Source: a virus
Length of the DNA stretch: 64,000 nt
Strand: one strand, 5' to 3'
Virus record (IMG/VR): IMGVR_UViG_3300036939_000082
Location: 1 to 64,000 of that record
Shown here one piece after another: positions 31,386 through 34,925 of this stretch. The notes beneath the pieces are model-generated. The model worked only from the letters and a program-made list of their open reading frames with translations. It searched no databases and was not told the origin of the DNA. Numbering within the stretch: the first letter of the stretch is position 1; every line of letters begins with the position of its first letter. A program made the position numbers and the translations under genes.

Positions 31386-31733
31386 TTTACTTGTTTTGTG
31401 CTTTTGGTGCTTGCTTATTTAAAAACTATCATAACTTAACTCAAATAAAACGTCAATACACAAAATTAAATTATCTAATGATACAAAAAAGATAGAAAAG
31501 ATATTAAATCTTAGTTCAGGGCAAGAAGAATAATTTCAAACAAAAGTGGGTGATCGGATAATCCGATCGCCCGCTTTCTTATTCTAAATTATTCTTGAAC
31601 CAGTCAATTACAGGTTCCCATTCGCTGTTTCGAGCAGACTCACAAATACCAAACGGAACGTAGATTGTCAATCCTTTCCCTGTCGGCTTTGGTCCAGGTT
31701 TTTTACTGCGTCGCCGAGACAGGGAAAGGTGGA

Positions 31734-32039
31734 CTAGCCCAAAGGGAGTACAGTACCCCTTTTGTATGTGGGCGAATTAGAGTGAACTACGATGCCACCC
31801 CCAGCTTTCGGATCGTACACGGCGATCGCATCAAACAAATTTTTGACAGAAAGTGCAACAGCCTCGTTCGCCCACATGGGCATCCCCGACACAATCACTA
31901 CACCTCCGCCACGAACCTCCGGCACTGTAAAATTTTCGAGTTCGGCGATCGTCAGCGGGTTTTGAGCATTGACGGGATTGCCGTCTTTCAAAATCTCTAA
32001 CAGCGTCACACCGTTGTTTTCAGTCACTTTAACTTCCAT
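31734..32039 (-). CDS. csx3: Csx3/Crn3-like protein (cyclic oligoadenylate ring-nuclease fold)
   Basis: GVVIVSGMPMW ... AVYDPK.GGGIVVHS ... G.V matches the Csx3 pattern GVVISGR.PIW ... AVYDPRLGAVVV.SH ... GDV; about 100 aa. Confidence 0.75.
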   Translation of the reverse strand: MEVKVTENNGVTLLEILKDGNPVNAQNPLTIAELENFTVPEVRGGGVVIVSGMPMWANEAVALSVKNLFDAIAVYDPKAGGGIVVHSNSPTYKRGTVLPLG

Positions 32040-32070
32040 AACTCTTACCTAAACTTGAATCAGTACATTT

Positions 32071-32099
32071 ATCTTAGACGGTTGCAAGCCAGGTGTCAA
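32071..32099 (-). promoter_or_regulatory. Strong sigma70-type promoter of the csx3-like gene
   Basis: TTGACA-N17-TAAGAT on the minus strand. Confidence 0.65.
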
Positions 32100-32614: not shown

Positions 32615-33409
32615 ATGACCAACATTATTGTAAGCATTCCAGACGAAATCCGCAACGAATTCCGAGTTGATGTCGACGGTAAAGCATTTGTGTCTATCAG
32701 AGGGGCTGCACGGATTGCAGATGTCACCCATGTTGCACTTCTTAAGGCGTTTGAAGGTGGTAACAAAAATCCTAGCAAACTTGCTCAAATGCTTATGGAT
32801 GCAGGATTTGAACCTGGTAACTTTTCTGAAACTGGTATCCCAGACATCGCGCTGTCGATCCTCCTCAAATATTACGCATTTAAAGCAAATCGTACTACAG
32901 AACAAGCTGAGCGCTTCTATGATGCTATGAGTGCGGTCGGTACGCGCACTTGGATACAGCAACAACTTGGTTGGAACCCTATACTAAGCCAAGCTCCATA
33001 CTGGTATCAGCGTTTAGTTCTATTCTTGGCTCAAAACAAAGTGCCTGCCGGCTACTTTTCAATATTCCAAGAAACGATCGCCCTCGTTGGAGATTTGGAG
33101 ACAGCAGGCTATGTACTACCCGATAATGCAATCCCCGATATTTCTATCGGGAAATGTTGGGCAAATCACTTGCGAGCTGAAAAAATAAACCCCAGCGATG
33201 TAGCAATCAATTACCCACATCAATATCCGGGTTGGGCGCACCCGGTGGATGCCAACGCCTATCCTGAAGAAATGCTGCCAAAATTCAGAAAGTGGTTCCG
33301 GGAAACCTACAAACCCGTCAAACTTCCCGCTTACCTCGCAGGCAAAGATAGCAATGCGCTGCCCGCGCTCAGCAAAATGCTCGATATCCCGATCGCCCTC
33401 TTGAAATAG
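32615..33409 (+). CDS. BstA-like protein (KilA-N-like N-terminus plus BstA-type C-terminal domain)
   Basis: VPAGYFSIF.E ... PDISIG..W ... Y.H.YP ... YP...L.KFR.W..E.Y, as recalled for BstA homologues. Confidence 0.6.
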   Translation: MTNIIVSIPDEIRNEFRVDVDGKAFVSIRGAARIADVTHVALLKAFEGGNKNPSKLAQMLMDAGFEPGNFSETGIPDIALSILLKYYAFKANRTTEQAERFYDAMSAVGTRTWIQQQLGWNPILSQAPYWYQRLVLFLAQNKVPAGYFSIFQETIALVGDLETAGYVLPDNAIPDISIGKCWANHLRAEKINPSDVAINYPHQYPGWAHPVDANAYPEEMLPKFRKWFRETYKPVKLPAYLAGKDSNALPALSKMLDIPIALLK

Positions 33410-33476: not shown

Positions 33477-34103
33477 TCAATCTGGGTTTTGATACTCGAC
33501 ACAAATATTGCAACTTGGTAGCTTGCTTTGCAACCACGCTACATCCGTATTTTTGAGCTTATTGTCTTCAAGAAATAAGTGTTTCAAAACAGTCAAAGAT
33601 GCTAGTGGTTCAATGTTACTAATTTGATTTTGATTGAGACTAAGTACGTTTAAATTAGTCAAGGAAGCTAGCGGCTCAATGTCGATGATTTTATTGGCTC
33701 CAAGCCACAACTTCGTTATAGTCTTCAAAGAAGCTAGCGGTTTAAGATCGCTAATTTGATTACCTCCAATGCCAAGCCAAATCAAATTACTCAAGGATGT
33801 TAACGGCTTAAGATCGCTAATTTGGTTGTTTCCTAAAAACAGGTATCTCAACTTAGTCAAAGATGTTAGCGGTTCAAGATCGCTGATTTGATTGGCTCCA
33901 AGACCAAGCAAATCTAGGTCAGTCAAAAATGCTAGCGGTTTAAGATCGTCGATCTTATTATTCACAATGTAGACGGTCTTCAGATTAACTAAAGATTTTA
34001 GCGGTTCAAGATCGCTAACTTGTCTGCTTGAAATGTCAATTTCTGTCAAGGTATTCAAATCACTAAATTGATCCAAAATCTTTTGAGTGTGCTTAGCTGT
34101 CAT
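33477..34103 (-). CDS. Stand-alone internalin-type leucine-rich repeat protein
   Basis: About seven 22-aa LxxLxLxxNQISDLxPL repeats. Confidence 0.9.
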   Translation of the reverse strand: MTAKHTQKILDQFSDLNTLTEIDISSRQVSDLEPLKSLVNLKTVYIVNNKIDDLKPLAFLTDLDLLGLGANQISDLEPLTSLTKLRYLFLGNNQISDLKPLTSLSNLIWLGIGGNQISDLKPLASLKTITKLWLGANKIIDIEPLASLTNLNVLSLNQNQISNIEPLASLTVLKHLFLEDNKLKNTDVAWLQSKLPSCNICVEYQNPD

Positions 34104-34565: not shown

Positions 34566-34925
34566 TTAACTTTGCTCATTTTGTTTTTCTAAACCAACAT
34601 CAACGATCGCCAGTCGATTTAAAAAAGACTGGCGATTTTCTATTACAGATTTCCCGGTTTTTGTAATTTGATAATATTTCCGTCGTACCCCTTCTAATTC
34701 ATCGCCCCATCTAGGAGTTATCCAACCTTTTTTTTCAAATTCTCTAAGAGTTGGATACAAAGATACTGGATTGTATTTTATTGTATTATTTGTCGCATTA
34801 CTGATAATACGAGCTATCTCTAAACCATACAAGGCTTGACCGTACAGGCTCCGAAGGATAGCTTCTTCTTTGGTTGTTATATCAGAAATTTTACTATTAG
34901 GCATACTACACAGTATATATAACAA
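34566..34925 (-). CDS. PadR-family transcription regulator
   Basis: LYGLEI ... SLYPTL..FEKKGWI ... RRKYY.IT.TG. Confidence 0.85.
   Translation of the reverse strand: MLYILCSMPNSKISDITTKEEAILRSLYGQALYGLEIARIISNATNNTIKYNPVSLYPTLREFEKKGWITPRWGDELEGVRRKYYQITKTGKSVIENRQSFLNRLAIVDVGLEKQNEQS

Follow-up and report, generated by a model that had tools for sequence, protein, structure and literature searches.

Here we describe a clade of Csx3 proteins that have lost the three catalytic histidines of the family, that are carried by cyanophages, and that were seen in phage-like DNA only, with no copy found in the cellular genomes searched. We refer to this clade as type B. We infer that its members are most likely antagonists of type III cyclic-oligoadenylate signaling that act by a non-canonical mechanism. 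The representative analyzed in detail is encoded in a stretch of viral DNA, hereafter the window, which makes up the first 64 kb of a 188,942-bp IMG/VR record rated 98% complete by CheckV. The viral cA4 ring nucleases described to date are AcrIII-1 (DUF1874) and AcrIII-2 (viral SAVED) (PMC12409355, PMC12751052). A 2025 survey of 28,114 phage genomes recorded no Crn3 (PMC12409355); Csx16 and Csx20 are present in a few phage genomes, and Csx15 was seen in none (PMC12409355, PMC12751052, PMC13148439). A full-text literature search returned no paper reporting a phage or cyanophage Csx3.

The csx3-like gene, taken from the list of open reading frames, and the elements that surround it are all on the minus strand, and read in the direction of transcription as follows:

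32071..32099, minus strand: sigma70-like promoter; -35 hexamer TTGACA at 32099-32094, 17-nt spacer, -10 hexamer TAAGAT at 32076-32071, 10/12 matches.
31734..32039, minus strand: csx3-like coding sequence for a 101-aa protein (type B, histidine-less Csx3), as judged from Pfam, fold and a dN/dS of ~0.3.
31673..31729, minus strand: long stem-loop (arms of 15-17 nt) whose start lies 5 nt past the stop codon of csx3; read from the sequence.
31579..31671, minus strand: conserved 30-codon open reading frame with a TTG start, between csx3 and the terminator; conserved in a sister phage.
31533..31577, minus strand: G+C-rich hairpin containing HIP1 (31543-31577), then a U tract; the cassette likely terminates here, judging from the fold and from retention in the sister phage.

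The membership of the 101-aa protein in the Csx3 family is apparent at the levels of both sequence and predicted structure. The Pfam profile Cas_csx3 (PF09620) is matched with an E value of 5.1e-11 and 42.7 bits, above the gathering cut-off of 21, and the match covers profile positions 5-77 of 78; four PADLOC Csx3 models match as well, and the PDB chains of the A. fulgidus protein (AfCsx3) are recovered by sequence with an E value of 0.0055. An AlphaFold2 monomer model built from 37 homologues is confident (pLDDT 93.7, pTM 0.85), and the 13 best matches of this model in a Foldseek search of the PDB are all AfCsx3 entries, among them the cA4 complex 6YUD as well as 3wzi and 6vjg, with TM scores of 0.73-0.79, an rmsd of ~2 Å and E values of ~1e-5. 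The first-pass annotation of the window, made from sequence alone, had recognized a Csx3 pattern in the 101-aa protein and named profile and Foldseek searches as the way to check it; the pattern is confirmed by both, with PF09620 above its cut-off and AfCsx3 heading the structural matches. Pfam returned no match to DUF1874 (AcrIII-1/Crn2), and no entry titled Crn2 or AcrIII-1 was present among the Foldseek matches listed. Searches of viral and plasmid collections with the protein or its model were empty: PHROGs has no family for it, the BFVD viral structure library holds no match better than E 0.3, and tblastn found no match in INPHARED phages or in PLSDB plasmids.

The gene is under purifying selection. 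Relative to the copy in the sister phage (L011), with which it shares 72% nucleotide identity, dN is 0.248 and dS is 0.841, for a dN/dS of ~0.3. An overlapping open reading frame on the plus strand (31665-32000, 111 aa) was rejected as a gene and is a shadow frame.

The elements flanking csx3 indicate a self-contained, single-gene cassette with a promoter and a terminator of its own, and the whole cassette is collinear and ~83% identical in the sister phage. There, both promoter hexamers are identical and the spacer differs at 8/17 positions; across the region, 6 promoter-like sites were found against 4.1 expected, such that a single site is not above chance. A stand-alone csx3 driven by its own consensus sigma70 promoter had been proposed from the window. 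The stand-alone arrangement with its own promoter is supported, and a likely terminator can be added to it; the promoter-like site is present, but with 10/12 matches it is near-consensus only. Downstream of the gene, the RNA of 31520-31740 on the minus strand is predicted to fold with -82.6 kcal/mol (z = -6.4 versus shuffles). The stem-loop at 31673-31729 within this segment possesses no U tract, and its arms are largely kept in the sister phage. The 30-codon open reading frame that follows it has 83% protein identity in the sister phage, with frame and stop position unchanged and synonymous changes at roughly half of the codons that differ; it found no homologue beyond the sister phage among the DNA compared, and may be a small gene or the relic of a gene end. 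A search of sequencing runs located this DNA in one biocrust DNA metagenome, which may be its source, and no RNA run was listed.

What sets type B apart is the composition of the face that carries the active site in AfCsx3. Csx3 proteins show absolute conservation of residues H57, H60 and H80; the first two, which lie at the symmetry plane of the AfCsx3 dimer, are the likely Mn ligands, the H60A variant is inactive, and the H80A and R71A variants are strongly impaired (PMC7371418). The cA4 contacts are mostly made by the D69 face, through the backbone of I22, S44, G45 and I49 and the side chains of S44, R46 and R71 (PMC7371418). An exhaustive phmmer search of 1.84 billion representatives with the 101-aa protein returned only 47 clusters at E values up to 1e-3. 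We aligned the hits of ~100 aa with cyanobacterial genomic copies in a motif table of 51 sequences, in which type B comprises the query and 26 relatives. The alignment splits cleanly, with type B on one side and the canonical proteins and two cellular cyanobacterial groups on the other, and a maximum-likelihood tree places type B on one side of a branch with support of 77/83 that is present in 100% of bootstrap trees.

Progressing along the alignment, canonical Csx3 and both cellular groups have no insert before the strand equivalent to that of I22, whereas type B has one of 9 residues in which G20, N27 and P28 are nearly invariant. The glycine-rich motif reads SG(R)xP (SGRGP) in the former and SG-MP in type B, where the R46 position is deleted. 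Histidine occupies the H57, H60 and H80 positions in the canonical and both cellular groups; type B has histidine at none of the three, and the H60 position is mostly asparagine. In their place, type B has its own conserved residues: K66, which is nearly invariant, N67, and in most members H86, two residues before the H80 position. The D-P-[KR] motif spanning D69 to R71 becomes [DN]-P-[KR]. In the query itself, H57 corresponds to L63, H60 to N67 (the N of SVKNLF) and H80 to N88; D69 is kept as D76, and R71 is conservatively exchanged for K78. Of the stretch aligned with the cA4-contact motif S44-G45-R46...I49, the query keeps S51-G52 and P54-M55-W56 and has a deletion at R46. The D69 face is thus partly retained, S51-G52, P54, W56, D76 and K78 corresponding to S44-G45, P48, W50, D69 and R71 of AfCsx3. 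Across the wider type B clade, N, T or A often stands in for D69. The first-pass annotation had observed that the histidine before the YDP motif, H60, is replaced and that the aspartate is kept; both observations are true, and they understated the change, as H57 and H80 are replaced also.

By these comparisons, type B is a distinct Csx3 clade that appears to retain much of the cA4-binding face while its H60 face has been rebuilt, with three histidines lost and K66, N67 and H86 conserved instead. One reading of this pattern is that of an ordinary Crn3 ring nuclease that is merely carried by a phage and uses the known Mn-dependent, tetramer-shared site, as Pfam membership, the fold, the retention of D69 and a lysine at the R71 position would allow. 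Its chance of being right is very slim: the histidines that are absolutely conserved elsewhere, and without which AfCsx3 is inactive (H60A) or strongly reduced (H80A) (PMC7371418), are all replaced throughout the clade, and the NCBIfam equivalog TIGR02579 ('CRISPR-associated ring nuclease Crn3/Csx3') is missed by 26 bits, at 29.5 bits versus a cut-off of 55.4. Because H57, H60 and H80 are all replaced, a canonical Crn3 active site is very unlikely in type B. The loss of catalytic residues could also be taken to mean that a host csx3 was captured, lost its function and is now decaying; this we hold to be extremely improbable, given an intact reading frame with a dN/dS of ~0.3, a conserved promoter and terminator, and a clade that extends across several unrelated phage lineages with invariant residues of its own. 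The conservation of K66, N67 and H86 on the former catalytic face likewise argues against simple decay, and because S-G, P, [DN]-P-[KR], K66 and, in most members, N67 and H86 are kept, the H60 face of type B is better described as selected than as decayed.

A complex model supports a symmetric homodimer, with an ipSAE of 0.77 against 0.00 for the best of 3 controls, a pass that may reflect only the likeness to the solved AfCsx3 dimer. The ipSAE mark was calibrated on proteins of solved structure, being reached by 20/30 solved as homo-pairs and by 1/23 solved as single chains. Model runs agreed in at least 95% of contacts, with a partner pLDDT of at least 89. The predicted interface takes in residues 63, 66 and 86, consistent with the position of H57 and H60 at the symmetry plane of the AfCsx3 dimer (PMC7371418).

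We then turn to the DNA that carries the gene. The 188,942-bp record encodes a large terminase, a lytic transglycosylase/peptidase tail-lysis protein, a helicase, a replication initiator and methyltransferases. The HIP1 sequence (GCGATCGC) occurs at 127 sites in the record against 1.6 expected, an enrichment of ~80-fold; richness in HIP1 is a signature of cyanobacteria and their phages. From its gene content and composition, the carrier is evidently a large cyanophage, with filamentous cyanobacteria as the presumed host group. Its large terminase has no relative in INPHARED and is 44% identical to one on the 223-kb Nostoc sp. C052 'plasmid' NZ_CP040278.1; the location of this closest terminase is a hint that the phage lives as an episome or is purely lytic. 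No tyrosine integrase, large serine recombinase or ParB was found in the record, which leaves the IMG/VR label 'provirus' unsupported. As a separate observation, GGCC is strongly depleted, with 71 sites against 419 expected, which suggests avoidance of a GGCC-specific restriction enzyme.

The search of the whole 188,942-bp record revealed no repeat-spacer array, no Cmr2 or Csm1 Cas10, and no RAMP, Cas1 or Csx1-HEPN. The lack of cas genes and of an array, noted previously for the window, extends to the entire record, and a type III cas operon on the same replicon, the finding that had been named as arguing against a phage countermeasure, was likewise searched for throughout the record and none was found.

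The same holds wherever the clade occurs: every informative type B context is phage-like and without cas genes. Eight IMG/VR viral records, ranging from 17-189 kb, carry type B genes; two are rated 100% complete, and none has Cas10. In the seven other than the present record, no RAMP scored above cut-off either. The contexts include this phage and contigs identical to it; the sister phage of 188.5 kb; a contig of 113 kb that encodes an SNF2 helicase, a PD-(D/E)XK nuclease and a DUF3987 helicase; contigs that carry ribonucleotide reductase and GIY-YIG; contigs with UDG and an integrase; a complete phage of 134 kb that encodes lysozyme and thymidylate kinase; a copy next to an endolysin-type amidase; and four related IMG/VR records. 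One of these four is a complete 95-kb genome with terminal repeats, in which genes for methyltransferase, ParB-like nuclease, HNH and helicase surround the type B gene. HIP1 is enriched 50- to 300-fold at most type B loci, and the clade spans several unrelated phage lineages. Comparison of the large open reading frames of four type B loci (L013, L015, L018 and L022) with PHROGs matched little. Among the remote hits of the phmmer search are longer, multi-domain Csx3 proteins that for the most part bear the histidines and are not type B. Two very long proteins returned by the search, of 2,023 aa (P0024) and 1,112 aa (P0046), contain 9 and 5 separate stretches that match the Csx3 query, which suggests tandem arrays of Csx3-like domains.

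Cellular cyanobacteria present a different picture. Genomes were reached through a 16S primer pattern in two samples, 401 across the cyanobacterial phylum and 401 of the order that holds Microcoleus, ~750 genomes together. In the phylum-wide sample, PF09620 matches are present in 65/401 genomes and Cmr2-type Cas10 in 106/401, the latter bearing out the assertion, made with the original annotation, that filamentous cyanobacteria, the presumed host group, commonly have type III systems. At least 20 cellular Csx3 matches are on the same contig as Cmr2/Cas10 and no more than 15 kb from it, mostly within 2.5 kb; these distances were obtained by comparing coordinates by eye among the Cas10 places listed. 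Type B itself was not found in the ~750 cyanobacterial genomes by profile search: the highest score against a type B profile is 35 bits in the phylum-wide sample and 41.8 bits in the Microcoleus-order sample, versus 101-151 bits for true type B members. Of the phylum-wide hits listed, none starts before profile position 18, leaving the N-terminal part uncovered, and the top hits that were inspected, including the 41.8-bit one, are canonical, histidine-bearing Csx3. A pattern scan of 185,579 species genomes also revealed no type B relative.

Both cellular cyanobacterial groups retain all three histidines. One of them is a well-conserved Csx3-like group of 101 aa that starts with MTTYKIEL and has the motif AHK..H...FDPK...ITHNP (for example at loci L147, L182, L188 and L193). 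Scores of this group against PF09620 are only 22-38 bits, and nine genomes have a copy within ~2.5 kb of Cmr2/Cas10, often at 0.3-0.5 kb; it looks like an under-recognized, cas-linked Csx3 subfamily.

Within the window, csx3 shares an accessory island with several other genes. A BstA-family abortive-infection gene (32615-33409, plus strand; PADLOC BstA, E 5.7e-41) is divergent from csx3, and the island further holds a gene for a leucine-rich repeat (LRR) protein (33477-34103, minus strand; LRR_4, E 2.8e-32) and one for a PadR regulator (34566-34925, minus strand). On a short metagenome contig (L021), the type B csx3 also has a BstA-like neighbor; in the sister phage, BstA is not adjacent to csx3. 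A conserved partner gene of type B csx3 was considered and rejected, as the neighbors differ in every lineage.

This setting raises the question of whether the Csx3 fold might have been turned to an unrelated phage role, such as RNA binding, host or phage regulation, or partnership with a protein such as BstA, with no antagonism of immunity. Such a role would accommodate the loss of the catalytic triad and the place of csx3 in an accessory island beside BstA, recurring at L021, and it recalls that Csx3 was first described as an RNA-binding deadenylase (PMC7371418). We nonetheless judge it unlikely, if worth keeping in view: type B contexts have no recurring partner gene, the sister phage lacks BstA next to its csx3, the RNA cleavage reported for AfCsx3 depended on the very histidines that type B has lost (PMC7371418), and the residues of the nucleotide site on the D69 face stay conserved.

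Taken together, we lean, by a modest measure, toward type B as a phage antagonist of cyclic-oligoadenylate signaling that would work without the Mn-dependent Crn3 mechanism, either by taking up cA4 as a sponge or filament or by acting as a ring nuclease that needs no metal. The idea of an antagonist gains weight because the whole clade was seen only in phage-like DNA, because the gene is under purifying selection, and because cellular Csx3 is found beside Cas10. The first-pass annotation had put forward an early-expressed cA4 ring nuclease or sponge that silences type III immunity. The Csx3 fold, a phage carrier without cas genes, the loss of the catalytic histidines and the occurrence of the clade in phage-like DNA only all agree with its general proposal; for early expression, the sequence offers no more than the sigma70-like promoter, and a ring nuclease of the canonical Mn-dependent kind is very unlikely.

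In the mechanism that we propose, csx3 would form a transcription unit of one gene, driven by its own host-type promoter, and the protein would intercept a cyclic oligoadenylate, most likely cA4, produced by the type III CRISPR system of the host, so acting as an anti-CRISPR. The cyclic nucleotide would presumably still be sandwiched between dimers. Two outcomes can be envisaged: i) lacking the Mn site, type B would sequester cA4 in head-to-tail assemblies, as AfCsx3 H60A does in vitro, or ii) type B would cleave cA4 independently of metal using K66 and H86, the lysine and histidine stabilizing an in-line attack by the 2'-OH. There are precedents. AfCsx3 H60A binds cA4 and polymerizes into fibers (PMC7371418), members of the Csx15 family act as sponges that hold cA4 in head-to-tail filaments (PMC13148439), metal-independent cleavage is known from other ring-nuclease families (PMC12409355, PMC7371418), and the viral SAVED protein AcrIII-2 is itself a scavenged host fold (PMC12751052). 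Against sponging, type III systems make much cyclic oligoadenylate (cOA), and pure sponging could be ineffective, as pointed out by the authors of the Csx15 study (PMC13148439).

The identity of the ligand bears on this model. It could differ from cA4, as the side-chain contact of R46 is deleted and the conserved 9-residue insert (G20, N27, P28) flanks the pocket. By extension, type B might bind or degrade some nucleotide signal other than cA4, for instance cA3, cA6, or the cyclic oligonucleotides of CBASS or other systems, and serve in anti-defense beyond cA4-type III immunity. The remodeled pocket, with R46 deleted and a conserved insert beside the I22-equivalent strand, and the complete change of the H60 face would fit with such a ligand, and phages commonly encode sponges for CBASS and Thoeris signals (PMC13148439). 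We consider a different signal improbable, as the cA4 site still has its backbone-contact motif S-G...P.W and its D-P-[KR] motif, the characterized Csx3 proteins are all cA4-specific (PMC12409355, PMC7371418), and the closest structure is the cA4 complex itself.

Stated at its most specific, our model is that type B constitutes a new, cyanophage-restricted family of type III anti-CRISPRs, the third viral one after AcrIII-1 and AcrIII-2, that would neutralize cA4 without the metal site of its parent, through inert head-to-tail filaments or through a new Lys/His active site on the rebuilt H60 face; we give this full statement about an even chance of holding. Only two viral families that remove the second messengers of type III CRISPR have been characterized so far, and a Csx3 clade confined to phage-like DNA would be the third host fold to be captured by viruses. 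It bears on how cyanophages cope with type III systems, which are common in filamentous cyanobacteria. It also amounts to a natural experiment in which a metal-binding catalytic face has been swapped for other conserved residues, setting sequestration against a second chemistry on the same scaffold.

Of the known systems, the closest is the A. fulgidus Crn3/Csx3 (AF1864; PDB 3WZG, 3WZI, 6VJG, 6YUD; PF09620), which type B resembles in fold, size, predicted homodimer, and the S-G...P.W and Y-D-P-[KR] motifs of the cA4-binding D69 face. The two differ in that they share 24-29% identity; the query has L, N and N at H57, H60 and H80, a newly conserved K66 and H86, a deletion of R46 and a 9-residue insert before the I22-equivalent strand; and it is encoded by a phage without cas genes and falls below the TIGR02579 cut-off. 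The cas-linked Csx3 of cyanobacteria, comprising canonical forms with the motif GRG.IW...H..H...YDPR...H, Csx3-AAA fusions among them, and the 101-aa MTTYKIEL forms, shares with type B the family, the host phylum and a similar length; the cellular forms, however, keep the histidine triad, have at least 20 instances within 15 kb of Cmr2/Cas10, and lie on separate branches of the tree.

AcrIII-1 (DUF1874) and AcrIII-2 (viral SAVED) are, like type B, small stand-alone viral proteins, and type B is presumed to remove cA4 as they do. AcrIII-2 offers the nearer parallel, being the fold of a host sensor scavenged by a virus that sandwiches cA4 between subunits (PMC12751052). Their folds are unrelated to that of Csx3, and both are proven enzymes, whereas type B is without the catalytic residues of its parent and is known from sequence and models. 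The last comparison is with Csx15, a cA4 sponge of the CARF family that is a slow ring nuclease, and with AfCsx3 H60A, both of which hold cA4 in head-to-tail filaments and turn over little or none of it. While Csx15 is cellular and was not seen in phage genomes, and H60A is a laboratory mutant, their filament behavior is what type B would show if it were a sponge.
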